A stretch of DNA of 64,000 nt from Escherichia coli (GTDB lineage: Bacteria > Pseudomonadota > Gammaproteobacteria > Enterobacterales > Enterobacteriaceae): assembly GCF_003790525.1 (NCBI RefSeq), contig NZ_CP033635.1; one strand, 5' to 3'. The notes under the pieces are model-generated. The model made no database searches and had not been told where the DNA came from. It was given only the letters and a program-made list of their open reading frames with translations. The position numbers and the translations under genes were made by a program. Below are positions 6,640 through 59,445 of the stretch, piece by piece. Position 1 is the stretch's first letter. Every line of letters begins with the position of its first letter.

Positions 6640-8000
6640 TTGTCATCCTCCACGCCCAGAAGGATGTGGATTCCTGCTAATCAGGCTATTGCCGGAATCA
6701 TTTCGGTGGGCTCCTGCTTAAACAAAAGGCCTGACTGCACCATCTCTTTACAGGCAAGTACGGCGTGCCCTGCAGCTAAAATATTACGGGTGCCGTTTAC
6801 ATCGGCGCTCGCTGCATATGTGCGCCGGGCATGGCGCGTAGCGCCGTGACTGGCGCTGTTCTTCAACTGTGGTGGCTGAAGAACGACTAAGAGGTGAAAG
6901 TCCTCCACACACCCGGTGAGGGGAAGTGTTAGCGGAAGGCAAGGGTGTTCATCGCGAGGTGAAATCTGAAGGAAGCCGGATGCAAAATGCTGGCCTGACG
7001 AACAGGAAGCGGTTAAGGCGGCGCAGCAGGGTAAGGTGGCACAAATCACCAAAGCCCGATACTCACACGGAACGCTGTGACGTAAAGCCGACAGGCATAA
7101 GCAGGAAAGTCGCGTGAATTACCCCGGGAGATCTGTCGCCCTGCCAGTGTGCTACCGGTGCCGTGAGGCGCCGGGATGGGGCGGCAGAAGTCAGCCGACG
7201 CCGTAGTAGTGCTGCAAAACCGGCAGCATGAAGGGCCGAACATGATTAACTGTGATTAGGACATCCGAACCCGATGATGATTAATGAAGCACACGCGCAG
7301 GCAACTGCGGCCAGCGGCAGAGGAGACGGACAGTATCCGTCAGGGCTGCATGATGGCGCTGAAATCAGCACGGCGGCGGGTGGGCAAACGAAAGCGGAAG
7401 TGCCGCTGACGATGGAAGCGGTGATAACGAGAGAAAACCTGATGCTGGCTTATCAGCGCGTGGTGGAAAACAAAGGTGTGTCGGAGTTGAAACCGTGGCT
7501 GAAGAAGAACTGGCGCAGCGTATGGCAGGTATTGATTGACGGAAACTACCAGCCGCGGGCAATACGCCGGATGGATATCCCGAAGCCGGATGGCGGCGTG
7601 AGAACCTTAGGCATCCCGACGGTGGTGGACAGGCTTATCCAGCAGGCGATAGCGCAGCAGTTAAGCGCCATCGTGGACACAGCTTCTGCCGCTACGCAGA
7701 CGACTGCAACATCTACGTAAGCAGCCGGAAAGCGGGCGACCATCTGCTGAAGGACATCAGGGCGTTCGTGGAGAGCAAACTGAAACAGAAGGTGAATGAG
7801 AAGAAGAGCGCGGTGGCGCGCCCGTGGGAGCGGAAGTTGTGGGCTGACAGTGACGGACCGTGCTGCTTCACCAAACGCCTTGGACGGCAGGCGGAACTTG
7901 GATCGTTACGTACTTGAAAAGTGGATCAACAAGAGGGTTCAACGAGACTGGGGAGTTATATTTCTTTCTCAAGGTCCGGCATTTATCTCTTCCACATGAA
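6640..8000 (+). mobile_element. group II intron remnant (5' RNA domains plus internally deleted reverse-transcriptase/maturase ORF); boundaries approximate
   Basis: ORF 7274-7720 has the RT domain 0-2 signature (ENLMLAYQRV..IPKPDGGVRTLGIPTVVDRLIQQAIAQQL); a downstream frame has RYADDCNIYV..KLKQKVNEKKSAVARPWERK (RT domain 5-7 and thumb); the intervening RT domains are missing and no domain V/VI was seen. Confidence 0.7.
7274..7720 (+). pseudogene. group II intron reverse transcriptase/maturase, N-terminal fragment (internally deleted, frameshifted)
   Basis: see group II intron remnant; RT motifs split between frames, indicating deletion. Confidence 0.7.
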
Positions 8001-18804: not shown

Positions 18805-20102
<1,298 letters not shown>

Positions 20103-26030: not shown

Positions 26031-26770
26031 TAAATATCCTCCGGCATAGCCGGAGGTTTTTCAAATGCGCCTATAAGGCTCTCTTACCAGCCGCGCCCTA
26101 ACAGGCGCACACGATCTGACATTTGCATCCAACTTCGTTACTCACGGTCCATAAACGCGCTGCCCAGGTAGGGAATCGATAACTGCTCTCCCATTTTATC
26201 CTCTTCAAGCTGGTGCTTTATGTAATCCTGTATCTTCGCCGTGTTCTTACCCACCGTATCGACTTAGTACCCACTGCACCAGAACTCCCTGTTCCTGTAT
26301 TTGAATTTCAAATCACCAAACTGCTCGTAAAGCATCAGACTGCTTTTCCCTTTCAGATATCCCATAAAGCCGGATGCGCTCATTTTGGGCGGGATCTCCA
26401 CAAGCATATGGATATGATCTGCACAGCACTCAGCTTCAAGAATCCGTACGCTTTTCCACTCACACAGCTTTCTCAAAATACTGCCTGTTGCTCTACGCTT
26501 CTCTCTGTAGAACACTTGTCTTCGGTATTTTGGCGCAAAAACTATGTGATATTTACAGTTCCATCGGGGTGCGCTAGCTCTTTTCGTTCCCCATTGGGTC
26601 CCCCTTTTGATTTTTTGTTTGACACTTGCTGTTGCCATACCGCAAGGTGTTTTAACAAATCAAAAGAGGTTTTAATAACTGGCTCAAAACTGAAAGCTTT
26701 CCGGAACCCCCAGCCTGGCTGGGGAGCTGTGCACAAAAAAGCACCTCCACAAACAGGAGGTGCAATTCGA
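26031..26770 (-). mobile_element. IS200 (IS200/IS605 family) element with characteristic left-end hairpins; boundaries approximate
   Basis: TnpA Y1-transposase ORF; left-end terminator hairpin GCACCTCC..GGAGGTGC plus T-run (26735-26763) and second hairpin CCCCAGCC..GGCTGGGG (26707-26725); no terminal inverted repeats, as expected for IS200. Confidence 0.8.
26138..26638 (-). pseudogene. tnpA: IS200 transposase TnpA (HUH/Y1) with in-frame nonsense codon (TAA at 26264-26266)
   Basis: WNCKYHIVFAPKYRR..ILEAECCADHIHMLVEIPPK matches IS200 TnpA; ORF stops at GY* and the same frame continues VDTVGKNTAKIQDYIKHQLEEDK to the natural stop at 26138. Confidence 0.8.
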
Positions 26771-30834: not shown

Positions 30835-32235
30835 ATGTCTCGTATTGAAAGCGATTTCCTTGGTGAGCGTGAAATTCCGGATGATTGCTATTATGGTGTT
30901 CAGACACTTCGTGGAAAAGATAATTTCCATATCACTGAAATGCCAATGAGTCAGGAGCCTTTCTTCATCATTGCCTTCGGTTATGTGAAAAAAGCAGCTG
31001 CGATGGCTAATAAGGAGTTAGGTACAATTCCTGCTGATGTTGCGGATGCTTTAATCTGGGCTTGCGACCAATTAATTGATGGTAAGTACCGGGAACAGTT
31101 TGTGACCGACTGGCTTCAGGGGGGAGCCGGAACGTCAACCAATATGAACTGCAATGAAGTGATTTGTAATCTTGCTGCAGAAAAACTTGGTAGCGTTAAA
31201 GGGGATTACAAACGCGTTTCGCCAAACGACCATGCTAATTTTGGTCAGTCCACCAATGATACATATCCGACAGCATTACATCTGGCATTGCTGCTGCGAA
31301 GCAATGTATTGCTTGAAGCTGTTGAACACCTCGTAGGAGCATTCTACAAAAAGGCTGACGAGTTCAGCACAGTGCTCAAGATGGGACGTACTCACCTGCA
31401 GGATGCAGTGCCAATGACTCTCGGCCAGGAGTTCCATGGCTGGGGTTTTACAATTAATGATGAAATTCGGGTCATCCGTAATGCACAGGAACACCTGCGG
31501 GTTGTAAACCTTGGTGCTACTGCGATTGGTACCTGTGTTACCGCTCACCCGGATTATCCCGCTTTAGCCGTGAAATATCTGGCCCAGATCACAGGCATTA
31601 ATTTCAGGAACAGTGAAGATCTCATCGCTGCCACAAGCGACTGTGGTGCATATGTTGCACTCAGTTCGGCCATGAAGAGCCTCTCTGTGAAGCTTACCAA
31701 GGTTTGTAATGACATTCGACTGCTTGCTTCAGGCCCCCGTTGCGGCCTGGCTGAAATTAACCTGCCTCAATTGCAACCGGGTTCTTCCATTATGCCTGGT
31801 AAGGTTAACCCCGTTATCCCGGAAGTAACAAACCAGTCTTGCTTCCTGGTTCAGGGGCTGGACACCACAGTGATGCTGGCGGCATCTGCTGGTCAGCTTG
31901 AGCTTAACGTTATGGAGCCGGTCATCACCTTTGCGCTGTTCACCTCACTCAAGGTGATGACGAATGCCTGTAACACACTCCGAACTAAATGCATTGATGG
32001 CATTACAGCTAATTCCGATCGAACTGCAGAGATGGTAATGCATTCCTGCGGTATTGTGACTCTCCTGAAGCCACATCTGGGATATAAGGTGTGTTCTGAA
32101 ATGGCGCACGAAGCATACCATACAGGCAAATCCCTCCATCAGATAGTGGTTGTCGAACGTAAGCTACTCACACAGGAAGAATGGGAGAAGACATTCAATC
32201 TGGATAATCTGATTGCTCCGAAGTTCGAACAATAA
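30835..32235 (+). CDS. aspartate ammonia-lyase / class II fumarase family protein (copy B)
   Basis: 466 aa, differs from copy A at about 2 residues (V14I, E28K); about 50 bp of upstream sequence is also shared. Confidence 0.88.
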   Translation: MSRIESDFLGEREIPDDCYYGVQTLRGKDNFHITEMPMSQEPFFIIAFGYVKKAAAMANKELGTIPADVADALIWACDQLIDGKYREQFVTDWLQGGAGTSTNMNCNEVICNLAAEKLGSVKGDYKRVSPNDHANFGQSTNDTYPTALHLALLLRSNVLLEAVEHLVGAFYKKADEFSTVLKMGRTHLQDAVPMTLGQEFHGWGFTINDEIRVIRNAQEHLRVVNLGATAIGTCVTAHPDYPALAVKYLAQITGINFRNSEDLIAATSDCGAYVALSSAMKSLSVKLTKVCNDIRLLASGPRCGLAEINLPQLQPGSSIMPGKVNPVIPEVTNQSCFLVQGLDTTVMLAASAGQLELNVMEPVITFALFTSLKVMTNACNTLRTKCIDGITANSDRTAEMVMHSCGIVTLLKPHLGYKVCSEMAHEAYHTGKSLHQIVVVERKLLTQEEWEKTFNLDNLIAPKFEQ

Positions 32236-32239
32236 AATG

Positions 32240-33175
<936 letters not shown>

Positions 33176-42164: not shown

Positions 42165-43117
42165 GATAACGGTTCATGTATCCCCTGAGCTGACAGTGTA
42201 CCGGGTATATTAAGCGTAACCGACAGGTTCTCCTTCATACCATATTAAATTTTTCCAGGTATTGCCGCTGCCTTATTTCGTCCCATACAGGAAAACTCGT
42301 CTGGGTTTCTGACAAATACGCGAAACTCACAGCCCCTCAATATCAACCACACGCTGTAAGCCGGTAATACCTGAAAATCAGCCTATTACCGCCCGCGCCT
42401 CCGTTACCGAACGCTCAGGTGACCAGACTGAAGCCCAGCACGCACTCGTAAAATTTGCGGTCAGTTCCGTCAGTCAGTGGGCAACCGCAGAGTTACGGGC
42501 TTCCAGGTCCACAGGAGTGAGTCTATAACGCGTGTGGGAAATCATTTTTTCTGGCGTTGACAGAACGCCTTACGGGCTGCTACTTACCCGGTGTCCCGCA
42601 ATACAGCCTTAGTGTTCCGTTATCGGGGATCCGGACGCACCGCAACAACCGGGGAAGTATTTCTGGTTAGAGCTGTGTCAAGAGGGATTTCTCAGCCCCT
42701 CACTCACCGGCTCAGTCTCAGGGCAGAAGCATTAATACACTCAGTTCATGTCTTATACAGGAATGGGCATAGGGGGAGCTGGCGTGTCACTGCTGATTTT
42801 ACGCATCAGCGTTCATGTATCTGCACTCTGATACAGAATGCTTCACAGCGCTCTGTTACCGGAGAGATTTACTCTCTTAGGTTATTCTGGCAAATCCTTT
42901 ACGTTACTCTCTGATGACTTCTTATATTTATAATACCAATCAGACAACCTTATCCCATCGGTGATATCAGTCTCCTGCTCGCCAGGAACGGGCTGACTCA
43001 CTGTAACCACCTCCGAAAACAACTCTGCAATTATCAGAACGCCTGCTTCTCTCCCTGTCCTCACGAAAACTATCCCCTCTTTATCGCGCGTGCGTGCGGA
43101 AGCATCTTTTCGCAACA

Positions 43118-43130
43118 CCCCCCCCCCCCC
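43118..43130. repeat. homopolymeric C13 tract about 165 bp upstream of alpA
   Basis: 13 consecutive C residues seen directly. Confidence 0.8.
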
Positions 43131-43579: not shown

Positions 43580-44197
43580 GTGAGGAATATGAAAATGAAA
43601 CAACAGTATCAGACCCGTTACGAGCTGCTCCATGAAAACTACCAGAAATGGCTGACCGGCTTCACCCGGCACGCCGTATCATGGGGCGTGTGTCATCCGA
43701 ATATCTACTATTTCCATAATCTGACGCCCGGGTGGGTGTCATTCAATGGCGAAAAACCGGAGATTGCCATCGTTCCCCAGAGTCTGCACCGGCTGATTTA
43801 TGGTCCGGACAAACGGAGCTCCCCGTCCCTGGATGATGATCTGGTGGTGAATTTATGCACCAGCGAACACCTGCTGGTTCATCATCCGATGCTGGAAGGG
43901 ATCCTGCTGTCTGAATGTGAGCGCCTGAAGCAACATTCTCTGGCAAACAAACTGATCAGCCTCTTCCGTCAGTTTGGCGGCACGGAGTTACGTCTCAAAC
44001 TGGTCTGGCTCTGCTGGCTTGACTTAATGACCGGAAACAGCCTTGACGACTGGACGAAAAACCTGAAACACAAATCAGAAAAAGATCTGGAGCAATGGAT
44101 CATTGCACGTCAGGGTCAGAGTGAACCACTGACAAATCTGATGGATCAGTACGTGCTTATGGCATACCGTACATCGGTTGATGCCGCTCACAGTTGA
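43580..44197 (+). CDS. hypothetical protein (CP4-island backbone, unknown function)
   Basis: 205-aa ORF downstream of alpA; no recognisable motif. Confidence 0.5.
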   Translation: MRNMKMKQQYQTRYELLHENYQKWLTGFTRHAVSWGVCHPNIYYFHNLTPGWVSFNGEKPEIAIVPQSLHRLIYGPDKRSSPSLDDDLVVNLCTSEHLLVHHPMLEGILLSECERLKQHSLANKLISLFRQFGGTELRLKLVWLCWLDLMTGNSLDDWTKNLKHKSEKDLEQWIIARQGQSEPLTNLMDQYVLMAYRTSVDAAHS

Positions 44198-44739
44198 TGT
44201 CTGAGAACCACAGGGCTGGCAGCAGAAAACCAGCCCTGTGGTAAAATACAGTAATAGCGGCGTACATCAGGCACGCCGCTCACTCGTCCACAGATCATAT
44301 ACGTCATTATACTGCGCGATAACGGAGGGCTTCAGCACCCGGTCATTTCTGAGCGGGTATGAATACCATTGATGATGCGAAGCAGCCACGTGCAGAAACG
44401 TTCTTCACAACCAGGTGCCTCCATCTTCACTGCAGTCTGAATGTGCCGGCTTGTTATCCACCAGAAATGGTATGCTCCGGTACATGCATACCCCGGAGAC
44501 TATAAACGCACTGAATCATAGCCTCCCACCTCAGCAGGAGGCAGTCAGCTTTCAGGCGGAAAAACGTTGCAGTTAAAGATCGTGAGAATCGCTGTTTCGT
44601 TGCATAGCAACCCGAACAGTTGTAGTGAAACATTTTACCTGCATCAGCACATGGTCAGGCGCCGTCTGTATGGCGTGGAATACTGATGTTTCGGCTGATG
44701 GCAAGCCTCATTCTGTACTGACCCCAAAAAGTTGGACAG

Positions 44740-45591
44740 TTAAACACGAGGCATATAGGTCTGATTCCGATATTCAATTGGAGTCAGACTTTTTAATTTC
44801 AGGCTAATTCTTCTGCTGTTGTAGTATTCAATATATTCCGTAACAGCATCCTTCAGTTCGCTTATATTACTGAACTCATCAAGATAAAAACACTCCGACT
44901 TTAAGGTTCCAAAGAAACACTCCACCACAGCATTATCCAGACAATTGCCTTTTCTGGACATGCTTTGTTTAATACCATGTTCTTTAAGAATATTTTGATA
45001 TTTTCTCATACGATACTGCCATCCCTGGTCAGAGTGCAGAACAGGATGCTCGTGAGGATTAAGCTTTTTGAATGCCTGATCGAGCATATTCTCAACCATG
45101 TTCATCACTGGTCTTTCCGAAAGGCTGTAAGAAATAACTTCGTTGTTGAAGAGATCTATTACTGGAGACAAATACAGCTTGCGCCCATTGACTGCAAATT
45201 CAGTAACATCGGTAACCCACTTCTCGTTTGGCCGCGTAGCCTTGAAATCTCTTTGGAGAACATTAGGGGCGGTTTGCCCTACCTCTCCTCTGTAAGAGCG
45301 GTATCGCTTGACCTTAATCGCTGCTTTAAGTGAGAGGGTTCCCATCAGGCGCTGAACAGCTTTATGGTTAATCTGTTTCCCTTCTCGATGAAGAGACAGC
45401 GTTACCCTACGGTATCCGTATCGGCCTCTATTCTCGTGATAAATCTCACCAATACGCTTTTTAACGTCCGCATACTTGTCAGGCTTGCTGAGAGCCTTTA
45501 GATGGTAATAAAACGTACTGCGCGGTATCTCCGCAGCCCTGAGAAGCTCATCAAGAGGATAAAACTGCCTTAGCTCGTTGAGTACTTTCAC
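44740..45591 (-). CDS. insK: IS150 transposase OrfB (DDE domain)
   Basis: 283 aa; DDE blocks; overlaps orfA end as in IS150. Confidence 0.9.
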
Positions 45592-46109
45592 TTTTTCGTG
45601 GGATGAGCTAAGGCTTTCAGCTTTTTTAGATACATAAGCCGCGTTTCAAGAAATCGAACTTGCCTTTCAAGATCCTCAATACGTCGGTCTTTTGACAGCT
45701 CCAATGCTGATGCCGCTTTTTCTGGATCAACTGATATTGCAATGTTTCTTTTGGTGCCAATCTTGAGCGCGCGTAAACCAGCTTCTCCGCGCTCTTCATA
45801 AACCTTCAGCCACCTGGCTACAGAACCACTACCAGCAAGCATAAAGTGAGCAGCAGCCTGATTAAGGGACATGTGCTGCTCGATCACAGCTTTCACGACC
45901 TTAATACGCAACTCTGGATCAGCACTAACACCTTTAGGTTTGGGAATTAAACCTTTTTCTCCATGTTTTTCATAGAGGGCAACCCATGTCCTGACCTGGG
46001 TTCGGGGGACACCAAAACGTGCCGAGATGATCCTGTAACCATCATCAGTAGTGAAGTAGTGATTCACGACTTCAAGGCGCTTTTCAAAAGGGTATTTTGG
46101 CTTTGACAT
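45588..46109 (-). CDS. insJ: IS150 transposase OrfA
   Basis: 173 aa MSKPKYPFEKRLEVVNHYFTTDDGYRI.. matches IS150 InsJ as recalled. Confidence 0.9.
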   Translation of the reverse strand: MSKPKYPFEKRLEVVNHYFTTDDGYRIISARFGVPRTQVRTWVALYEKHGEKGLIPKPKGVSADPELRIKVVKAVIEQHMSLNQAAAHFMLAGSGSVARWLKVYEERGEAGLRALKIGTKRNIAISVDPEKAASALELSKDRRIEDLERQVRFLETRLMYLKKLKALAHPTKK

Positions 46110-48024
46110 ATCAGGGGCTATTCCATTTCATCGTCCAACAAAATGGGTGCAGTACATTCTCTGTGGAAACAGGGGCGCGCATTAGCTTCTCAACCAGAGA
46201 GTGTCACAAAGACAAATATTGCTGAAAATCGCATTCATCGTTCAGGCGTGAATGCCCGGAGACAAAAGCCGCTGTCCACACAGTCCCCCTCTGACCTGAA
46301 CAAAAAGCATACACACAACAGGCTCACCTGACCCCGAAAAACCATAACTTCAGCAATACCAGTGACACCAGCACGTTACCTCAGTGCCACATCTTCAGAC
46401 CGCGATCAATCTGAAATGTGACTATCGGGGCAATATCCCTGCTTTGTGGTACACGATAACCAGAAAACATCCCCTGAACCGCCAGCCAGAAAGACTGGCC
46501 ACAAAAGGGGTAAGCTGAAATCGTTTATGGATTACATCGACATATGCCTGGCAGAGAATGTCCGGAATGACGAGGTTATCTTTGCGGAGATTAAGGCAAT
46601 GGTATACGGGCCGACGTTCCATGCCGCGTTACTACATTCAGCCCGGACGTAAAATGCGCCCGTCAAAAAGAACGGTTCGCTTCGAAACTCAGCCAGGATA
46701 CCACCTCTCCGCCACACCCGGGAAGAAGTTGATATGGTGGTTGCCGGACAACAGCGCTCCTGGATTGACTGCTGCATCACTCAACCACGCTGAATATCAA
46801 AGGAGAGCGTTACCGGTTAAAAGAGAAACGTAAAGCTGTGGTGATGACCCAAAACGCAACGCCTGTCAGTGAGGATGAAATGGTGAAAAGCGGACAGCAT
46901 CAGTAACGGAAGTATCTTAGCGGGTACGAAAATGGCAGGATCGTGACATTGACAGAATATCTCCTGATCATCCTGAATGACTGCAGTTGCTGTAGAAAAG
47001 TAAGCTGTCTCCACCCACGGCACCACTTAACAGGCATTCCGTAACTTCCCCCAGACTTACTATGACGCATTATCGGTGCACTGAAAACGGGAGAGTGCGC
47101 TTAAAACCGCAGACCGCATGCGGGTGTTACTGCATGACAGTCTGGCCGTATTGTGAGATGTCGGCAGGAACCGATGTCCGCGCAGGGGGGAACTTCCTGC
47201 AGTACCTGACGCTTCAAATGGTATTAACCGTAGGGTGTTGTTGGTTCCGGATCGCGGAAATGGGAGCACAGGTCTGCTACGGGGTGTACCTCTGACAGTA
47301 AATCCGGCTCGCTCATCTGACAGCCTCTCTCCCGGAAAAGACCAAAAATGAGATCGTCTCCTCAACAGCAGAGAAGAGGTCTTGACAGACAGGCTACATT
47401 GCATACGATTTATGAAGAAAAAGACAGCAAATATGGAGGTTATAGCGGAGAATACCCTACGAAATTCCTATGAAAAACGATTGAAAAAAATATCAAATTC
47501 GATTCGTTTTTATATGCTTTTTGGGAGCGTGGCGATGACGAACTGTTGCATGTGCAGAGGAGAATGCACCCGGAAGCACCAGAATCATCCAGAAAGGCAG
47601 AACGATTACGCATCAAACCAGGAGACAGCAATATCAAGGTAATATACTGATTTAAAATGAATTTACAGCAATACGTGAAAACATTTTTTACTTAAAGGAG
47701 ACAGATGCGCTGAAGAGAGTGCAGGTATTTTTATATAAAAATGAGAAGTTTACGGGATGTATATCCGGCACACTATGACCGGAGAATATCAGTCAAGCTT
47801 AAAAAGACAATAAATACAGTGAGTTAAATACACAGAGAAAACGTAGTATCAGAGGGTACATCTTACAACAGAGACTGAATTTCCGGTTTTTCATAACCGG
47901 CGCATTCCGGAAAGTGCAGGCGGCCCGGAGGTTTTCTGACGCCACTACCTGGTAGATTGTTCTGTACATCATGTACGGAGGTTTTTGTTTGCTTTTTTAA
48001 AATCTGCAAATGTGAGAAAAGCAG

Positions 48025-49188
48025 GTGAGGTGTATTGTGGGAAAGGAACTGGATGATATCTGCACCAGCTGTCCGTATATCGATACTGTAAAACGGCACA
48101 AACAACAGCTCGGTGCCATAGAGGAATATACACAGTGGTTAAAAAAAGAACCACGGGCATCTTATTTTTTTCTGTTCCAGCTGTATACCCGCATTCACAA
48201 TACATTTTTCTCCCAAAAGCAACAACTCCCGTTCACTCCCGGTGGCACTCACTGCCCGGAACCTGATGTCACCCTTCGGGACTTAACGCTTTCCCCTGGC
48301 TACCACAGTGATTATGCCCCTCAACCCATTCCGGAGATGGACAGTTCTGCTGTTGTTCCCCCAACTAATGAAAACACCTCGCCTCCGGAAGATACTCCCG
48401 ACAACACTCCGGCCGGAGGCAATACCGGACAAGCGGAAAAGACCAGAAACGCAGGACTCACACCCATTCCTGAAAAACGTTCAGGAATGCCCCCGGAACA
48501 TCTGCGGTTTGCCACGGGGTTTCCATCGCAACCGAAGATTGCCGGTCCCAGAGAAAAGCCGATGCGCACCGTGCATCCGGATAAAATCTACCGTGAAATT
48601 ATATGGTTCTGCTCCAGTTACCTGCTGAAATCCGGACCAGAGGCTACGAGGACGATTATCAACTCAGTATTCTCTGAATGGGCCAGCATAAACAATGATT
48701 ACCCCTCCCCCTTTTCGTGGGTGGACAGCAGGGACAGTGAACAGTGTGACTGGTTATGGAACGCCATGCAGATCCGGTGTGTGGGAACCCCGCTGAATCC
48801 CCTTACCCCGGAGCAGAAATACTGGTTTGCCTGCGCCACGTTTGATAACTGGGAGGGCTGGAATGAGCAACAGGTACAGTTTTTACTGGAAAGTAATCCC
48901 AGACGGAACAGAGCGAAGTTTACGCAGGTCTCCTTCCAGGCCCCCAGGATTCAGCATAAAGCGATTCTTCTTGATGAGCTGAAAAGTGCCCGGGAGCAAC
49001 AAAAAAGGCGTGATGAACGTGCTGATGGTTCCGTCCCTCTGAAACTGTCCGGAAAAATCCACAAACAGCTTGAAAGTATTGCCCGAAGTCGTGGTGTCCT
49101 CCCAAAAAAACTGCTGAATGAAATGATTGAGCAGGCGTACCATGATTTGGTGGCAACCAGGCAGAACAGCCAAATCGATTCCAGATAA
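48025..49188 (+). CDS. hypothetical protein with Pro/Thr-rich low-complexity linker (island backbone, unknown function)
   Basis: 387-aa ORF ending 45-84 bp upstream of the YeeP-family GTPase gene; start codon uncertain. Confidence 0.5.
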   Translation: MRCIVGKELDDICTSCPYIDTVKRHKQQLGAIEEYTQWLKKEPRASYFFLFQLYTRIHNTFFSQKQQLPFTPGGTHCPEPDVTLRDLTLSPGYHSDYAPQPIPEMDSSAVVPPTNENTSPPEDTPDNTPAGGNTGQAEKTRNAGLTPIPEKRSGMPPEHLRFATGFPSQPKIAGPREKPMRTVHPDKIYREIIWFCSSYLLKSGPEATRTIINSVFSEWASINNDYPSPFSWVDSRDSEQCDWLWNAMQIRCVGTPLNPLTPEQKYWFACATFDNWEGWNEQQVQFLLESNPRRNRAKFTQVSFQAPRIQHKAILLDELKSAREQQKRRDERADGSVPLKLSGKIHKQLESIARSRGVLPKKLLNEMIEQAYHDLVATRQNSQIDSR

Positions 49189-49271: not shown

Positions 49272-50144
49272 ATGAATCCGTCTGATGCCATTGAGGCAAT
49301 TGAAAAACCGCTCTCCTCCCTGCCTTACTCACTTTCCCGTCACATCCTGGAACATCTGCGCAAACTCACCAGTCACGAACCCGTGCCTGGCATTATGGGT
49401 AAAAGCGGGGCCGGTAAATCCTCACTCTGTAATGCGCTGTTTCAGGGGGAGATCACCCCGGTCAGTGATGTTCACGCCGGCACCCGGGAAGTGCAGCGCT
49501 TCCGTCTGAATGGCCATGGTCACAGCATGGTTATCACTGACCTGCCCGGGGTGGGCGAGAGCCGGGACAGGGATGCAGAGTATGAAGCCCTGTACCGTGA
49601 CATTCTGCCCGAACTGGACCTGGTACTGTGGCTGATTAAAGCCGATGACCGTGCCCTGTCTGTGGATGAGTATTTCTGGCGACACATCCTGCACCGGGGA
49701 CATCAGCGGGTACTGTTTGTGGTGATGCAGGCCGATAAAACGGAGCCCTGCCATGAATGGGATATGGCCGGTATTCAGCCTTCTCCCGCACAGGCACAGA
49801 ACATTCGCGAAAAAACGGAGGCGGTATTCCGTCTGTTCCGGCCCGTACATCGGGTTGTTGCCGTATCGGCCCGCACCGGCTGGGAACTGGATACGCTGGT
49901 CAGTGCGCTCATGACAGCACTTCCCGACCATGCCGCCAGTCCCCTGATGACCCGCCTGCAGGACGAGCTGCGCACGGAATCTGTCCGCGCTCAGGCCCGT
50001 GAACAGTTTACCGGTGCGGTGGACCGGATATTTGACACGGCGGAGAGCGCCTGTATTGCCTCTGTTGCACGCACGGTTCTGCGTGCCGTCCGTGACTCGG
50101 TGGTCTCTGTTGCCCGCGCGGTATGGAACTGGATTTTCTTCTGA
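49272..50144 (+). CDS. YeeP/YfjP/YkfA-family small GTPase (50S-ribosome-binding GTPase fold)
   Basis: P-loop GIMGKSGAGKSS, DLPG (G3) and Mxxx ADK-like G4; start taken at MNPSDAIEAIEKP. Confidence 0.8.
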   Translation: MNPSDAIEAIEKPLSSLPYSLSRHILEHLRKLTSHEPVPGIMGKSGAGKSSLCNALFQGEITPVSDVHAGTREVQRFRLNGHGHSMVITDLPGVGESRDRDAEYEALYRDILPELDLVLWLIKADDRALSVDEYFWRHILHRGHQRVLFVVMQADKTEPCHEWDMAGIQPSPAQAQNIREKTEAVFRLFRPVHRVVAVSARTGWELDTLVSALMTALPDHAASPLMTRLQDELRTESVRAQAREQFTGAVDRIFDTAESACIASVARTVLRAVRDSVVSVARAVWNWIFF

Positions 50145-50260
50145 ACCCGGTGGTGATGTACCAGGCTGTTGTTACAGATTTTTAACTCCATGAAAACACT
50201 ATGCAAACGCAGCCATACCCGGGTTGTCCCCTTGCGTTGTGTTTCTCAAGTTAATAGAAT

Positions 50261-50305
50261 GCATCGATCGTTACTATCATATCGATCGTTATAAACGATC
50301 GTTTG
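50261..50305. promoter_or_regulatory. cluster of three GATC-containing palindromic repeats (ATCGATCGTTA x2, AAACGATCGTTT) upstream of the dynamin-like operon; candidate Dam/OxyR-type phase-variation switch
   Basis: GATC at 50266, 50284 and 50297 within 35 bp, embedded in direct/palindromic repeats; sits where the agn43 (flu) regulatory region lies in CP4-44. Confidence 0.5.
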
Positions 50306-50361
50306 TAGTAAATGACCTCCTCCGTGGTTGTCATGAAAATGCGTCTTAGGAAGGTTAAATA

Positions 50362-52758
50362 ATGCACGAAAAGAACATCGCCCTGCTTTGTGATGAAGCC
50401 GACCGACTTTTGCAACTGAACATTAATCTGCTCCGGCAAATGGTTGAGGAGCCAGATGTGTTATCTGACAGTAAGAACGAAAACAGACTGCTTTTTGATA
50501 AACAGAAAGCACTGAAAAGAATTGAGGAGCTGGAGGGCGAACAAATCAAAACCGCCCGCAGGGAGATGGTGCTGGCTGTTGTCGGCACGATGAAAGCAGG
50601 CAAATCAACCACCATCAACGCCATTGTGGGGCAGGAAATTCTGCCTAACCGTAACCGCCCCATGACCTCTGTACCGACGCTCATCCGCCACGTTCCCGGA
50701 AAAACTGAGCCGGTTCTCCATCTGGAACATATTCAGCCTGTCCGCAATTTATTAATCACACTGCAGGAAAAACTCGCCACCCCGGCAGGACAGCAGGTCG
50801 CACAGACCCTGCAGCAAACCGGGGATACCCGCGAACTGCTGGATATTCTGACGGATGATGGCTGGCTCAAAAATGAATACCACGGGGAGGAGGAAATCTT
50901 TACCGGACTGGCATCGTTAAACGATCTGGTTCGTCTTGCTGCGGCAATGGGGACTGAATTTCCTTTTGATGAATACGCAGAAGTGCAGAAACTGCCGGTG
51001 ATCGACGTGGAATTCAGCCATCTGGTGGGGATGGATGCATGCCAGGGAACACTCACACTGCTGGATACCCCCGGCCCTAATGAGGCCGGACAACCGCAGA
51101 TGGAAGTGATGATGCGGGATCAACTGCAGAAAGCCTCTGCGGTTCTGGCTGTGATGGATTACACCCAGATGAACTCAAAAGCGGATGAAGACGTCCGTAA
51201 AGAGCTTAATGCCATTGCTGACGTATCAGCCGGCCGCCTGTTTGTACTGGTCAATAAATTTGATGAGAAAGACCGCAATGGCGATGGGGCAGATGCCGTA
51301 CGCCAGAAAGTTCCGGCAATGCTGAACAGCGATGTGCTGCCCGCCTCCCGCGTTTATCCCGGATCCTCACGCCAGGCATACCTGGCTAACCGTGCGCTTC
51401 ATGAGTTACGGAAAAACGGAACCCTTCCTGTTGATGAAGCCTGGGTCGATGATTTTATCAGAGGTGCCTTCGGTTGCATGAAAAAAGAATACGTCTGTAA
51501 AGACAGTGAACTGGCAACTGAAGGGGCGACAGACCTGTGGGAAGGCTCACTTATCGATCAACTGATAACGGAAGTCATACAGAGCTCACATTCCAGAGCT
51601 GCGGCACTGGCGGTTGACTCTGCCGCCGCAAAACTGATGCAGAATGCAGAAAATATCAGTGAATACCTGTTGTTACGCCATCAGGGGCTACAGCAAAGCA
51701 TTCAGTCACTGCAGTCGCATATCACCAGCCTGCTTGCGGATATCCGGGAAATCGCGGACTGTCAGGAGCAGATGACCACTGATGTCAGAATGGCCATGGA
51801 GGAGATCGATACTAAAACCCGGGAATTACTGACGGGGGTCTGCACCTCACTGGAAGAGGAGCTGAATGACTATTTCAGAAGCGGTAAACGCAAAGAACAG
51901 CAAATGCTGGAGGAAGAAGACGCAGAACAACGAAGGTCTCAGTCCGGATTATGGGGGAAAATTTCTCAATGGTCCGGTATCAACAACCAGGGCCGGGAGG
52001 ATTACAGGAAACGAGATTTTGCCCCGGACAGCCCCGAAATAAAATTCAGTGATCGCAGGGAAGCCCTTGAACTGATGACGCAAATCGAATCGACCGTGAC
52101 CAGCCTGCACCGTGAGGCTGAAGCACAGTTCCGGCCTGAGCTGGAGAAAATCGTCAGCGGGATTGAAACAGGTTTTCGTGGCACGGCCCTGTACGCCACA
52201 GAAAACATTGCCGGTCGCATCAATGCCCGCCTGGAGGATGAGGGCTTTACCGTAAAAATCAGTTTTCCGGCAGTCAGCCAGTTACAGACCCGGCTCGCGG
52301 TAAAAATAAATCTGAGTGCGCTTATGGAGGAAAGAACGGAGACCGTCACCCGTCGCCGTCGGCAGAGTGGCGTATGGGGAACCGTTTGTCGATGGTTTGG
52401 CACCAGTGACCTGGGCTGGGAAAACTATGACGAGGATGTGAGTCGCAGCGTGATCAATATCAACAAGGTCAGAGAGGAAGTTATGTCACTGACCCGGGCA
52501 TATTTCGGGGAGCTGCAGGCATCCATTGAGCAGGATATTAACCAGCCCGTCCGCCAGGAAATCGATGCCTTTTTCTGCGCATTCAGGGAGAAAGTTGAAC
52601 AACTGCGTAACACGCTGATTCAGAGCTCTGAAGATCATAAACGCGATCAGCAGGCGCAGGAACGGCTTACCGGGCGACTTCAGGCATTAAATGAAAGGGT
52701 TCCTGAGCTCATTACTGACAGTAAGGCGCTGAGGGAAGAGCTGGAGACAATGCTGTGA
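50362..52758 (+). CDS. dynamin-like GTPase (bacterial dynamin-like protein; CrfC/YjdA paralog)
   Basis: 798 aa; AGGAAGG RBS; P-loop GTMKAGKST (G75-S82), G3 LLDTPGPNEAGQ, G4 VLVNKFDE; N-terminal 330 aa closely parallel K-12 YjdA/CrfC as recalled; long coiled-coil C-terminal half. Confidence 0.85.
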   Translation: MHEKNIALLCDEADRLLQLNINLLRQMVEEPDVLSDSKNENRLLFDKQKALKRIEELEGEQIKTARREMVLAVVGTMKAGKSTTINAIVGQEILPNRNRPMTSVPTLIRHVPGKTEPVLHLEHIQPVRNLLITLQEKLATPAGQQVAQTLQQTGDTRELLDILTDDGWLKNEYHGEEEIFTGLASLNDLVRLAAAMGTEFPFDEYAEVQKLPVIDVEFSHLVGMDACQGTLTLLDTPGPNEAGQPQMEVMMRDQLQKASAVLAVMDYTQMNSKADEDVRKELNAIADVSAGRLFVLVNKFDEKDRNGDGADAVRQKVPAMLNSDVLPASRVYPGSSRQAYLANRALHELRKNGTLPVDEAWVDDFIRGAFGCMKKEYVCKDSELATEGATDLWEGSLIDQLITEVIQSSHSRAAALAVDSAAAKLMQNAENISEYLLLRHQGLQQSIQSLQSHITSLLADIREIADCQEQMTTDVRMAMEEIDTKTRELLTGVCTSLEEELNDYFRSGKRKEQQMLEEEDAEQRRSQSGLWGKISQWSGINNQGREDYRKRDFAPDSPEIKFSDRREALELMTQIESTVTSLHREAEAQFRPELEKIVSGIETGFRGTALYATENIAGRINARLEDEGFTVKISFPAVSQLQTRLAVKINLSALMEERTETVTRRRRQSGVWGTVCRWFGTSDLGWENYDEDVSRSVININKVREEVMSLTRAYFGELQASIEQDINQPVRQEIDAFFCAFREKVEQLRNTLIQSSEDHKRDQQAQERLTGRLQALNERVPELITDSKALREELETML

Positions 52759-53660
52759 CTTCACCATTTATTCAACAAATTGCTGATAACCGGGTATGTC
52801 AGGTACTCACCTGTCTTCCTGAAAAATTTGTGGTTGATTTCGCAAACGGAATCGATGTTGCACAGGAGCATATCCGCACGGCCGGAGAGCGCACGTTCTT
52901 CCGGCGTTTAAAAGAGGGGCTGACCGGCGAAGGCGCTGCACGGCAGAATGCCATCAATGCGTCGCTTGCACAGGGCGTTGAGGCGTCCCTGCGCTGGCTG
53001 ACGGAGATGACAACGTCACTTGCCACCACAAACTACGCGATTACCCGGGTAAACGACAGGGTCAGTTCACTGGTCAGTGATACAGCCAGGCTGGCGCATT
53101 ATTCCGCAGATACGCGGGAGCAGTTACTCACCCTGGCCGATCAGGTTCACCATAAACTGAATCATCTTGAAGAAAAACTCCACCGTGTTGACCAGGTTCA
53201 GCGGGCGCAGTTACATCTTGAGCAGATATTCTCATGGTGGAGCGCCGGGCGATATGCGTCATTTTCCCCTGCCGGACGTTGTTATGTGGCACTTGAAGAG
53301 CTTCGCTGGGGCGCGTTTGGTGATGTGATACGTCAGAGCGAAACAGGCCAGGTTAACCAGCTACTGGATATTCTCAGACATAAAGCATTAACGCAGATGG
53401 CACAGGAGAGTGGCGGTAGTGCAACCGTGCGTCTGAACACTCTGGACTGGCTTGGTGGTCAGGGCCGGGAGCAGGCAGATAACGAGTGGCATGACGCGAT
53501 TAACTGGCTGGGAGACTGGTGCAGTGAAGAGCAGCATCCGGTGATCTGGTCAACCACGCAGGCTGCAGAACACTTACCGGTTCGCATGCCTCGCCTCTGC
53601 TCTGCAGAACGCCTCTCTGAAAGTATGGTCGATGAAATATTTCAGAAGGGGGCTGCATGA
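52755..53660 (+). CDS. YjcZ-like protein (partner of dynamin-like GTPase), unknown function
   Basis: 301 aa; GTG start overlapping upstream stop (GTGA); same gene order as yjdA-yjcZ in K-12. Confidence 0.6.
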   Translation: MTSPFIQQIADNRVCQVLTCLPEKFVVDFANGIDVAQEHIRTAGERTFFRRLKEGLTGEGAARQNAINASLAQGVEASLRWLTEMTTSLATTNYAITRVNDRVSSLVSDTARLAHYSADTREQLLTLADQVHHKLNHLEEKLHRVDQVQRAQLHLEQIFSWWSAGRYASFSPAGRCYVALEELRWGAFGDVIRQSETGQVNQLLDILRHKALTQMAQESGGSATVRLNTLDWLGGQGREQADNEWHDAINWLGDWCSEEQHPVIWSTTQAAEHLPVRMPRLCSAERLSESMVDEIFQKGAA

Positions 53661-54727
53661 GTACAGAAATGAAAACGGGGCTGGTGCTGTCCGGTGGCGG
53701 GGCGGTGGGCGCTTATCAGGCGGGAGTGGTTAAGGCACTGGCAGAGTGTGGTACACAGATCAGCATGGTTTCAGGGGCCAGCATTGGCGCATTCAATGGT
53801 GCCATTATCGCGGCCTCTACCGATCTGTCAGAAGCTGCCGTACGCCTGGAGGCGCTCTGGGATCATCTGGGGAATAATCAGGTGCTGTCGGTAAACAGAT
53901 TGGTTTACTTTTCATTGCTGAAAAAATTGTTCCAGGCAATGAACCTCTGCCAGATCCCCGGACGTGCAGGAGCACTGCTTACGACGCTTCTTCGCCATAT
54001 ATCGACAATCAACGGGTTTGACAATCTGATGGCTCAGCCGTTGTTGTCAGATGAGCCCCTGACAGCGCTGATGGATCATTATCTTGATACTGATGCTCTG
54101 GCAGACGGGCTACCGCTGTATGTGTCGCTGTACCCCACAGAAGGGGGCATGCAGGATATTATTGACTGCATTCGTGCTGAACTGGGTGTCGGAACCACGA
54201 AAAACGCCGTTTTTCAGCATATCCAGAGCCTGCCCCGCGGACAGCAGAAAGAGGCTCTGCTTGCGTCAGCCGCGCTGCCCCTGCTGTTCCGTCCCCGTGA
54301 GGTTCAGGGGACAATGTTCGGTGATGGTGGTATGGGAGGATGGCGAAATATGCAGGGAAATACCCCTGTGACGCCTCTGGTCGATGCCGGATGCAATATG
54401 GTGATTGTGACGCATCTGAGTGACGGTTCTTTATGGGATCGCCAGGCTTTTCCGGACACCACAATCCTTGAGATCCGTCCCCGGAAAAGGCTGAAATATG
54501 CAGGTGATGGTGGCAACAGCGGCGGTCTGCTCAGTTTTACATCGGCACATACCGACGCCTGGCGTCAGCAGGGCTATGAAGACACGATGCTGGCGATGGA
54601 GCATATCCGGAAACCGCTGGCAGCACGTCAGGCACTGACCCGGTCAGAGGCGGTATTGCAGAAAAGCCTGGATATAACGGAAGAGGCAGATTTGGCACTG
54701 AGAAACGCGATGGCCCGGATTAAATAA
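53657..54727 (+). CDS. patatin-like phospholipase
   Basis: 356 aa; oxyanion/glycine-rich loop GLVLSGGGAVGAYQAG, nucleophile elbow GASIG (Ser42), catalytic Asp motif FGDGGM; ATG overlaps upstream stop (ATGA). Confidence 0.85.
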   Translation: MSTEMKTGLVLSGGGAVGAYQAGVVKALAECGTQISMVSGASIGAFNGAIIAASTDLSEAAVRLEALWDHLGNNQVLSVNRLVYFSLLKKLFQAMNLCQIPGRAGALLTTLLRHISTINGFDNLMAQPLLSDEPLTALMDHYLDTDALADGLPLYVSLYPTEGGMQDIIDCIRAELGVGTTKNAVFQHIQSLPRGQQKEALLASAALPLLFRPREVQGTMFGDGGMGGWRNMQGNTPVTPLVDAGCNMVIVTHLSDGSLWDRQAFPDTTILEIRPRKRLKYAGDGGNSGGLLSFTSAHTDAWRQQGYEDTMLAMEHIRKPLAARQALTRSEAVLQKSLDITEEADLALRNAMARIK

Positions 54728-58880: not shown

Positions 58881-59254
58881 ATGAAAACATTACCTGTATT
58901 ACCCGGGCAGGCGGCCAGTTCTCGCCCGTCTCCTGTTGAAATCTGGCAGATACTGCTGTCCCGACTGCTGGACCAGCACTATGGCCTCACACAGAATGAC
59001 ACACCTTTTGCCGATGAACGTGTGATTGAGCAGCATATTGAGGCAGGCATTTCACTGTGTGATGCGGTGAACTTTCTCGTGGAAAAATACGCGCTGGTGC
59101 TACCGACCAGCCGGGATTCAGCGCCTGTACCCGCTCTCAGTTAATAAACAGCATCGATATCCTCCGGGCTCGCAGGGCGACCGGCCTGATGACCCGCGAC
59201 AATTACAGAACGGTAAATAACATTACCCTGGGTAAGTATCCGGAGGCGAAATGA
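58881..59254 (+). pseudogene. cbtA: type IV toxin CbtA (YeeV), inactivated by a 1-bp frameshift near codon 73
   Basis: N-terminal 72 aa match YeeV; ORF then reads [14 protein letters not shown] while the +1 frame encodes the expected INSIDILRARRATGLMTRDNYRTVNNITLGKYPEAK C-terminus. Confidence 0.8.
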
Positions 59255-59445
59255 TGACACTGGAAGCCGACAGCGTTAACGTACAGGCGCTGGATATGGG
59301 GCACATTGTCGTTGACATTGATGGTGTTAATATCACTGAACTGATTAATAAGGCCGCTGAAAACGGTTATTCACTCCGCGTGGTGGATGACCGTGACTCT
59401 ACCGAAACACCGGCAACTTATGCCAGCCCTCACCAGTTGCTGTAA
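59251..59445 (+). CDS. yeeW: YeeW-like small protein
   Basis: 64-aa ORF overlapping the cbtA stop (ATGA), as in CP4-44. Confidence 0.6.
   Translation: MMTLEADSVNVQALDMGHIVVDIDGVNITELINKAAENGYSLRVVDDRDSTETPATYASPHQLL

Follow-up and report, generated by a model that had tools for sequence, protein, structure and literature searches.

The window analyzed here, a 64,000-nt stretch of Escherichia coli DNA, carries a complete IS150 element (IS3 family, IS150 group) between two hypothetical genes, one of 205 aa that ends at position 44197 and one of 387 aa that starts at 48025. An earlier sequence-only reading of the window had placed an intact 1443-bp IS150 with both terminal inverted repeats in this interval, and both the placement and the intactness of the element are borne out. 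IS150 lies on the minus strand between the 205-aa gene and the remnant of an IS21-family element, ~300 bp to the left of the remnant. The features of the locus are as follows.

44670-44713, plus strand: 5' part of a split 71-aa orphan open reading frame (ORF); the restored ORF reads MAWNTDVSADGKPHS up to the insertion point and LWKQ... after it
44711-44713, no strand: left TTC copy of the 3-bp target-site duplication; the empty allele of strain AH50 has one TTC
44714-46156, minus strand: complete IS150, 1443 bp, from its length and a reading of its ends
44714-44737, minus strand: right terminal inverted repeat of IS150, at the insK-proximal end, TGTACTGACCCCAAAAAGTTGGAC; 18/24 match to the other terminus
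44740-45591, minus strand: insK (orfB), 283 aa, with a DDE (rve) catalytic domain; ORF, rve at 5e-29, profile positions 2-102 of 102
45561-45624, minus strand: stem-loop predicted immediately 3' of the slip site; its core stem of 10 bp pairs 45605-45614 with 45567-45576
45588-46109, minus strand: insJ (orfA), 173 aa, helix-turn-helix DNA-binding protein; ORF, HTH_28 at 4e-23, also HTH_29
45621-45627, minus strand: slippery heptamer A AAA AAG for a predicted -1 programmed frameshift giving an InsJ-InsK fusion; X XXY YYZ phase with insJ
46133-46156, minus strand: left terminal inverted repeat of IS150, at the insJ-proximal end; reverse complement TGTACTGCACCCATTTTGTTGGAC
46157-46159, no strand: right TTC copy of the target-site duplication; one TTC in the AH50 empty allele
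46160-46331, plus strand: 3' part of the split 71-aa orphan ORF, from an ORF reading of the restored site
46473-46754, plus strand: frameshifted istA fragment of the IS21-family remnant, with neither N- nor C-terminus; annotated in identical sequence in SMS-3-5 and AH50
46769-46906, plus strand: fragment encoding the C-terminus of IstB, the helper ATPase of IS21; matches Pfam IstB_IS21 at positions 209-238 of 238, and NF006616

The IS150 copy and its transposase genes

The element begins and ends with TGTACTG...CAGTACA (TG...CA type), and its terminal inverted repeats are imperfect, with 18 of the 24 terminal positions complementary. Many loci annotated as "IS3-like element IS150 family transposase" match it from end to end at 100% identity. 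Its assignment to IS150 is based on length and near-identity, the TG/CA inverted repeats, the two-ORF layout, the frameshift signal, and the 3-bp duplication.

The insJ and insK genes are consecutive overlapping ORFs, with insK in the -1 phase, and neither is interrupted, as the earlier reading had claimed. Together their products span positions 1-369 of the NCBIfam transpos_IS3 model (NF033516), with InsJ covering positions 1-89 and InsK covering positions 93-369 of 369 (7e-104). Candidate catalytic residues of InsK, placed by motif reading, are D128, D188, and E224 (in WVTD, HSDQG, and AVVE, with spacings of 60 and 36). A simulated -1 shift at A AAA AAG yields a 456-aa product without interruption, and RefSeq marks a programmed frameshift of the IS150 transposase at the corresponding place in SMS-3-5. 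The stem-loop downstream of the slip site has a minimum free energy of -20.4 kcal/mol (z = -3.4), which was equalled by 0 of 200 shuffled sequences. The heptamer and the stem-loop have the makeup of a programmed -1 frameshift signal, from which an OrfAB fusion transposase is predicted. This copy of IS150 appears to carry all of the sequence features needed for activity and is predicted to be competent for transposition.

Transposases of the IS3 family generate a circular copy of the element and insert it at a staggered 3-bp cut, and simple insertion of IS150 and its relatives is expected to produce a 3-bp, or occasionally a 4-bp, target-site duplication. IS150 encodes the helix-turn-helix protein InsJ and, via a predicted -1 frameshift on A-AAA-AAG, would also encode a 456-aa InsJK fusion transposase with the DDE (rve) domain. 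The element entered decayed, probably non-essential DNA of a CP4-44-like island beside yeeA, sbmC, dacD, and sbcB; extrapolating from knowledge of the family, repair of the staggered 3-bp cut would have left the TTC duplication. IS150 has been described as a copy-and-paste mover of the IS3 family that generates 3-bp duplications (PMC11708052).

The empty site and the distribution of the insertion

Matching 3-bp flanks are expected by chance in 1 of 64 cases and by themselves are weak evidence. The identical TTC repeats claimed earlier are indeed found at both junctions, and a simple insertion with a 3-bp duplication is confirmed because the restored empty site, with the flanks joined in silico without IS150 and with one TTC, occurs without a break in 1315 complete E. 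coli genomes. In AH50 the restored site is 100% identical and reads ...GCAAGCCTCATTCTCTGTGGAAAC..., with a single TTC. This strain is collinear with window positions 24119-64000, with 9 differences in 38.4 kb, and thus provides a near-identical 38-kb haplotype from which the IS is absent. Joining the flanks and comparing strains without the insertion were the two checks that had been proposed alongside the claim of a simple transposition, and both support that claim. IS150 occurs once in the window; we rejected a composite element or a rearrangement, since the window holds no second copy or fragment and empty-site genomes align collinearly with the flanks.

Among 5426 complete genomes, the occupied left junction was found in 141 and the right junction in 138, always in the chromosome and once per genome, and the whole IS150 with 500-bp flanks was matched in 135. 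The occupied genomes include SMS-3-5 and O1:K1:H7 strains, and identical junctions were found in genomes from several continents, whether of human, dog, poultry, wildlife, or water origin. The site, orientation, and duplication are the same in all of them. Adjacent core genes of some occupied strains are ~0.9% diverged from those of the window, which argues against a very young clone as the source of the ~140 occupied genomes.

At least five kinds of later events have struck this same IS150 copy in other genomes. For example, IS2 is nested in it in ECONIH1, ISEc53 in SF-088 and PE144, and an IS3-family element in KW21 and CEA212U at differing positions and in differing orientations, and in Survcare253 the copy is truncated, with an adjacent deletion that reaches into rdcB. 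In SF-088 and PE144, ISEc53 carries a gene of the ClbS/DfsB family, which the annotation places between the ISEc53 transposase gene and the disrupted IS150. The window copy shows no decay. The O1:K1:H7-type occupied allele differs from that of the window by one SNP in the IS and two changes in the near flanks. We searched for an empty allele carrying both of these flank variants, exemplified by E16002, and found none, the best empty match being AH50 at 99.9%; this suggests that the variants arose after the insertion.

Because the junctions are shared by 138-141 genomes and the copy was later damaged in some of them, the insertion is best regarded as a lineage marker that did not arise in the window strain. 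We estimate a probability of about 93% that IS150 at this site is an old but undecayed lineage marker present in ~140 sequenced E. coli. Comparison of the alleles suggests a single origin of all occupied sites. This would require that homologous recombination moved the occupied segment between backgrounds, because the AH50 haplotype is empty and core divergence reaches ~0.9%. We envisage that the insertion would have happened once, on a haplotype that survives empty in AH50, and that inheritance, probably together with recombination, would then have brought the occupied segment into the ~140 sequenced genomes that carry it.

Alternatively, the TTC site could be an IS150 hot spot that received independent insertions in the same orientation in different lineages. 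Empty and occupied alleles coexist among close haplotypes and also in K1:H7 strains, of which S88 lacks the insertion and SF-088 and E16002 have it. In E41, an IS150 insertion in cas1e that is unrelated to this one has a flank that is similar over ~14 bp. However, orientation and duplication do not vary among the occupied genomes, and the E16002-type flank variants are on no empty allele, as a single insertion predicts. Furthermore, the sites at which IS150 inserts in evolution experiments are numerous and varied (PMC11708052). We consider repeated insertion at this site very unlikely.

The interrupted DNA and the age of the insertion

The flanks of IS150 had been described as devoid of convincing ORFs. 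This description is accurate, but the right flank holds an internally deleted IS21-family remnant. Its istA fragment has 87% DNA identity, from window position 46476, to an IS21-like element on pETEC_80, and its istB fragment has 89%; a ~1.4-kb internal deletion joins the two. Reduced to an internal piece of istA and ~30-45 C-terminal residues of IstB, the element at 46473-46906 is, as read from its sequence, a dead remnant. Because the 71-aa ORF shares its reading frame with the istA fragment, we asked whether IS150 interrupts the IS21-family element. Insertion of IS150 within the 5' part of that element is unsupported: in tblastn comparisons with plasmids, IstA similarity starts only at ~46446-46476, the best comparator (pETEC_80) itself being cut at the same point as the remnant, and six-frame scans with NCBIfam and Pfam found no IstA N-terminus near 46160. 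Other strains have IS100kyp and IS66-family elements in this same stretch.

A scan of the whole window with Rfam at gathering thresholds detected no RNA gene between 44198 and 48024, no tRNAs were found in the window, and no Pfam or NCBIfam domain was found at the insertion site in any frame. The scan of 44100-48100 for promoters and terminators returned no more sites than in shuffled controls. Assignment of the downstream GTPase/dynamin cluster to a known defence system was also considered and rejected; PADLOC gave only weak partial LeoBC matches, and we did not assign the cluster as Eleos.

The earlier reading had raised the possibility that a gene or regulatory region was split by the insertion. 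An ORF of 71 aa is indeed split, 44 nt from its start, and in Ecol_244 it is annotated by PGAP as hypothetical protein WP_001327829.1. Inactivation of a functional small gene, or of an island regulatory region, with a resulting phenotype would be consistent with this annotation and with the downstream island genes (387-aa, GTPase, dynamin, RdcB-like, and patatin) being on the same strand. However, the ORF is unannotated in AH50 and Res13-Lact-ER07-18, which have the same sequence, and contains no Pfam domain. A protein search returned only E. coli ORFs, with 84-100% identity and inconsistent called lengths, and we therefore rejected the ORF as a conserved gene. Three differences within it between two haplotypes comprise two non-synonymous changes and one synonymous change. 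Moreover, the start of the 387-aa gene is 1.9 kb away, a promoter-like site (47382-47409) separates the gene from IS150, and the stretch is already broken up by the IS21 remnant and, in other strains, by IS66 and IS100 elements. Thus, what stands of the suggestion is that an ORF was split; a functional disruption is quite improbable, and the insertion is most likely without phenotypic effect, judging from these comparisons. There is only a very slight chance that the TTC site is preferred and was struck more than once, that the insertion knocks out a real 71-aa small protein, or both. If this were true, a natural null allele would be present in ~2.6% of sequenced E. coli and would affect the adjacent GTPase/dynamin/RdcB-like/patatin module.

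The insertion had also been called probably recent. The lack of decay and the near-identical AH50 haplotype without the IS are in keeping with that description, but an event at the level of the strain is contradicted by the shared junctions and the later damage. An insertion in, or just before, the window strain would explain the perfect duplication, the intact ORFs, the 100% identity to other IS150 copies, and the empty AH50 haplotype, but it is very improbable given identical junctions in 138-141 complete genomes of varied source, occupied alleles on diverged core backgrounds, and five or more kinds of later events.

The occupied junction provides a specific 80-bp signature for ~140 complete genomes, among them SMS-3-5 and certain O1:K1:H7 strains, and could be used as a lineage marker. 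The nested insertions and the one adjacent deletion at this copy illustrate IS elements piling up in decaying island DNA. Our analysis also offers a caution for first-pass readings, in that finding an IS intact and flanked by a perfect target duplication does not count as evidence of recency. The importance of the insertion beyond such bookkeeping is small.

Comparison with known IS150 copies

Neither IS150 and its mechanism nor this particular insertion is new; they are covered by existing RefSeq annotation, for example in SMS-3-5. The insertion in SMS-3-5 (NC_010498.1 1087815-1089257) is identical to that of the window in site, orientation, duplication, and sequence, and the window is 99.98% identical to SMS-3-5 across the region, with an extra IS3-family element in SMS-3-5 at a position equal to window ~31914-32269.

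IS150 of K-12 MG1655 (NC_000913.3 3720633-3722075) has the same length of 1443 bp and 99.3% nucleotide identity to the window copy, with 10 differences in 1443 nucleotides, an identical InsJ, and three substitutions in InsK (positions 48, 197, and 268). The termini, the A AAA AAG site, the stem-loop, and the two-ORF layout are shared. In contrast to the window copy in the CP4-44-like island, the K-12 copy is in the hokA/sokA locus beside cspA and glyS, and its flanks as read (GTA and AAC) have no obvious 3-bp duplication.

IS150 insertions in the Lenski long-term evolution experiment are reportedly dated, recent events, many of them within genes and many either adaptive or tied to adjacent deletions. 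The window copy, unlike these, is an inherited insertion in decayed DNA, and a deletion adjacent to IS150 of the kind seen in the experiment occurs at this locus only in Survcare253. The element itself is the same in both settings and leaves the same signature, as simple insertions of IS150 in the experiment, conducted with E. coli B REL606, produce a 3-bp duplication (PMC11708052).

Setting of the element and its empty site

The IS150 copy is located in a CP4-44-like island adjoining yeeA, sbmC, dacD and sbcB. The gene order runs from an AlpA-family regulator and a 205-aa hypothetical gene through IS150, an IS21-family remnant and a 387-aa hypothetical gene to genes for a GTPase, a dynamin-family protein, an RdcB-family protein and a patatin-like phospholipase, with yeeS, yeeT, cbeA and cbtA further along. 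The observation made from the sequence alone is real and correctly described, and its range of 44711-46159 is accurate, as it comprises IS150 and both TTC copies. The features, read directly from the sequence, are as follows.

Features of the IS150 insertion (window coordinates)
44714-46156, minus strand: IS150, exactly 1443 bp
44711-44713 and 46157-46159: TTC copies, abutting both IS150 ends
46109..45588, minus strand: 173-aa ORF (insJ), uninterrupted
45591..44740, minus strand: 283-aa ORF (insK), uninterrupted
45627-45621, minus strand: heptamer A AAA AAG, in the X XXY YYZ phase of insJ

Because a 3-bp repeat arises by chance in 1 of 64 cases, the TTC repeat alone is weak proof of transposition. 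The check proposed in the sequence-only reading, here done with 600 bp from each side linked through one TTC, recovered a real empty site: the joined sequence is contiguous in 1315 complete genomes and matches strain AH50 at 100%, where the junction (...GGCAAGCCTCATTCTCTGTGGAAAC...) has one TTC only. This single-TTC allele confirms a simple transposition with a 3-bp duplication. IS150 is a copy-and-paste mover of the IS3 family, for which 3-bp duplications are known (PMC11708052).

The window is 99.98% identical to strain SMS-3-5; over positions 1-25000 it matches SMS-3-5, KFu014 and others at 100%. At window ~31914-32269, SMS-3-5 has an extra IS3-family element (1527 bp compared to 355 bp in the window), and the window is therefore from a close relative rather than the exact SMS-3-5 RefSeq record. 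Upstream of the alpA-like gene, a short tract at 43116-43128 differs in almost every genome compared (at 43118 in AH50 and SMS-3-5, and at 43117-43123 in other genomes) and probably represents a homopolymer or repeat of variable length. The cluster at 49272-54727, encoding the GTPase, a 798-aa dynamin-family protein, the RdcB-family protein and the patatin-like phospholipase, may be a defence-like module. PADLOC gave only weak partial matches in this cluster, to LeoBC (4.7e-8, 8.6e-5) and to a phospholipase effector model (4e-5); on such matches the cluster does not qualify as Eleos. The island also encodes a type IV toxin-antitoxin pair, CbtA/CbeA. Its toxin gene cbtA, at window ~58882-59255 based on the SMS-3-5 annotation (locus L002, 34669-35042), is annotated as frameshifted, with the antitoxin gene cbeA intact, in SMS-3-5, AH50, S88, SF-088 and E16002.

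The interrupted stretch and nearby remnants

The suggestion that the insertion may have split a gene stands only in part. Where IS150 is inserted, the empty-site genomes AH50 and Res13-Lact-ER07-18 have no annotated gene; the PGAP annotation of Ecol_244 has a 71-aa hypothetical protein (WP_001327829.1) spanning the site. The restored window sequence contains this ORF too, differing from Ecol_244 at 2 amino acids, and IS150 lies 44 nt into it. Among 5.8 billion protein clusters, 17 relatives were identified (84-100% identity, 55 to 113 aa), of which all source-named ones are labelled E. coli and none has a Pfam domain. When the restored 44198-48024 gap was scanned in six frames with Pfam and NCBIfam, solely the C-terminal end of IstB was detected; an Rfam scan of this gap detected nothing. 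In other strains, IS100kyp or IS66-family elements occupy the same stretch. All that IS150 can be said to split is an orphan ORF, whose reality is doubtful given its patchy annotation and lack of a domain. The stretch is decayed DNA in which insertions are tolerated and accumulate, and a functional effect of the insertion is unlikely.

Several degraded elements were observed in the window. At 46473-46906 is a dead IS21-family element, made up of an internal, frameshifted piece of istA joined to the last ~45 istB codons. An IS21-like element of pETEC_80 has 87-89% DNA identity to 46476-46752 (istA fragment) and ~46749-46937 (istB end), and this comparison places a ~1.4-kb internal deletion between the fragments; no IstA similarity extends leftward toward the IS150 site. 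Group II intron Rfam matches at 6948-7236 on the plus strand (D1-D4-3, 140 bits; D1-D4-1, 72 bits) are followed by a 148-aa ORF annotated as "maturase" at 7274-7720 and then by pseudogene fragments. Together these resemble a group II intron in decay, and some relatives, such as Z0117EC0056, have an intact ltrA intron inserted there. Two minus-strand Rfam sRNA matches are apparently IS-associated sequence, not genes in their own right: isrC (19872-19994, 150 bits) is within an annotated IS3-like ISEc31 transposase gene, and STnc490 (26604-26727, 122 bits) adjoins an IS200/IS605 tnpA pseudogene with a frameshift.

Age and spread of the insertion

The insertion was initially described as probably recent. 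Consistent with this, the copy is undamaged, and AH50 is collinear with window 24119-64000 except for IS150, with 9 differing positions in 38.4 kb. However, the 80-bp left and right junctions are present in 141 and 138 genomes, respectively, always chromosomal and one per genome, and the whole element with 500-bp flanks is present in 135. The sources of the junction-bearing genomes are humans, dogs, poultry, wildlife and water. Among the occupied genomes are the O1:K1:H7 strain APEC E16002 and SF-088, whose core genes beside the island (window 60-64 kb) have ~17-20 changes per 2 kb relative to the window; the allele itself differs by one IS150 SNP (45915) and two changes in the near flanks.

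In addition, the shared copy has been damaged in other genomes. IS2 is nested in it in ECONIH1, ISL3-like ISEc53 in SF-088 (locus L005, 20067-23329) and PE144 (L015, 4067-7329), and an IS3-family element in KW21 and CEA212U, which differ in its position and orientation. In Survcare253 (L012, 4067-5182), a deletion adjacent to IS150 has taken out the IS21 remnant together with the genes for the 387-aa protein, the GTPase and the dynamin; of IS150 itself only the insK-distal ~500 bp are left, directly adjoining the middle of the RdcB-family gene. The insertion is thus undecayed but inherited and common to a lineage, a description that should replace "recent". Separately, SF-088 and PE144 have an annotated gene of the ClbS/DfsB family (colibactin self-protection-like) that lies between the interrupted IS150 and the transposase gene of ISEc53; it is a candidate ISEc53 passenger gene.

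The empty site in S88 suggested that this might be a hot spot receiving IS150 repeatedly. When the empty site was rebuilt from E16002-type flanks and searched, no empty allele with both E16002-type flank variants was found, and the best match was again AH50 (99.9%), making a single insertion the simplest account. A single insertion into an AH50/window-type haplotype would have been followed by a few mutations and by spread, partly into other chromosomal backgrounds, presumably via homologous recombination. In strain E41, an unrelated IS150 insertion in cas1e (match H144, NZ_CP069707.1 1120254-1120307) has ~14 bp of flank resembling the island site, giving a junction-spanning match of 54 bp with 2 mismatches; this likeness hints at some IS150 target-sequence preference.

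Comparison with known IS150 copies

Judged by its sequence, the element has every checkable defining feature of IS150 and the IS3 family. Its termini (TGTACTG...CAGTACA) are complementary at 18 of the 24 outermost positions. In Pfam, the 173-aa protein has matches to helix-turn-helix domains, and the 283-aa protein matches the rve domain (DDE integrase core) over its full length; in the NCBIfam IS3-transposase model of 369 positions, the two jointly match 1-89 and 93-369. The catalytic residues are candidates assigned by motif reading. A simulated -1 slip at the heptamer yields an open 456-aa fusion, and the predicted stem-loop that follows (10-bp core, -20.4 kcal/mol, z = -3.4) folds more stably than any shuffled sequence. 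The frameshift mechanism of IS150 is reportedly that of Vogele et al. 1991, as cited in PMC11708052.

IS150 was found in 2864 of 5426 complete genomes, at a median of 2 places per genome; the window contains no second copy or fragment. The 1443-bp element is a 100% full-length match to many E. coli loci annotated "IS3-like element IS150 family transposase", and RefSeq annotates the identical sequence in SMS-3-5 as an IS150 transposase produced via programmed frameshift. Public annotation already covers the element and its mechanism as well as this specific insertion. Compared to the K-12 MG1655 reference IS150 (insJ/insK), the copy has 10 nucleotide differences, with InsJ identical and 3 InsK residues changed.
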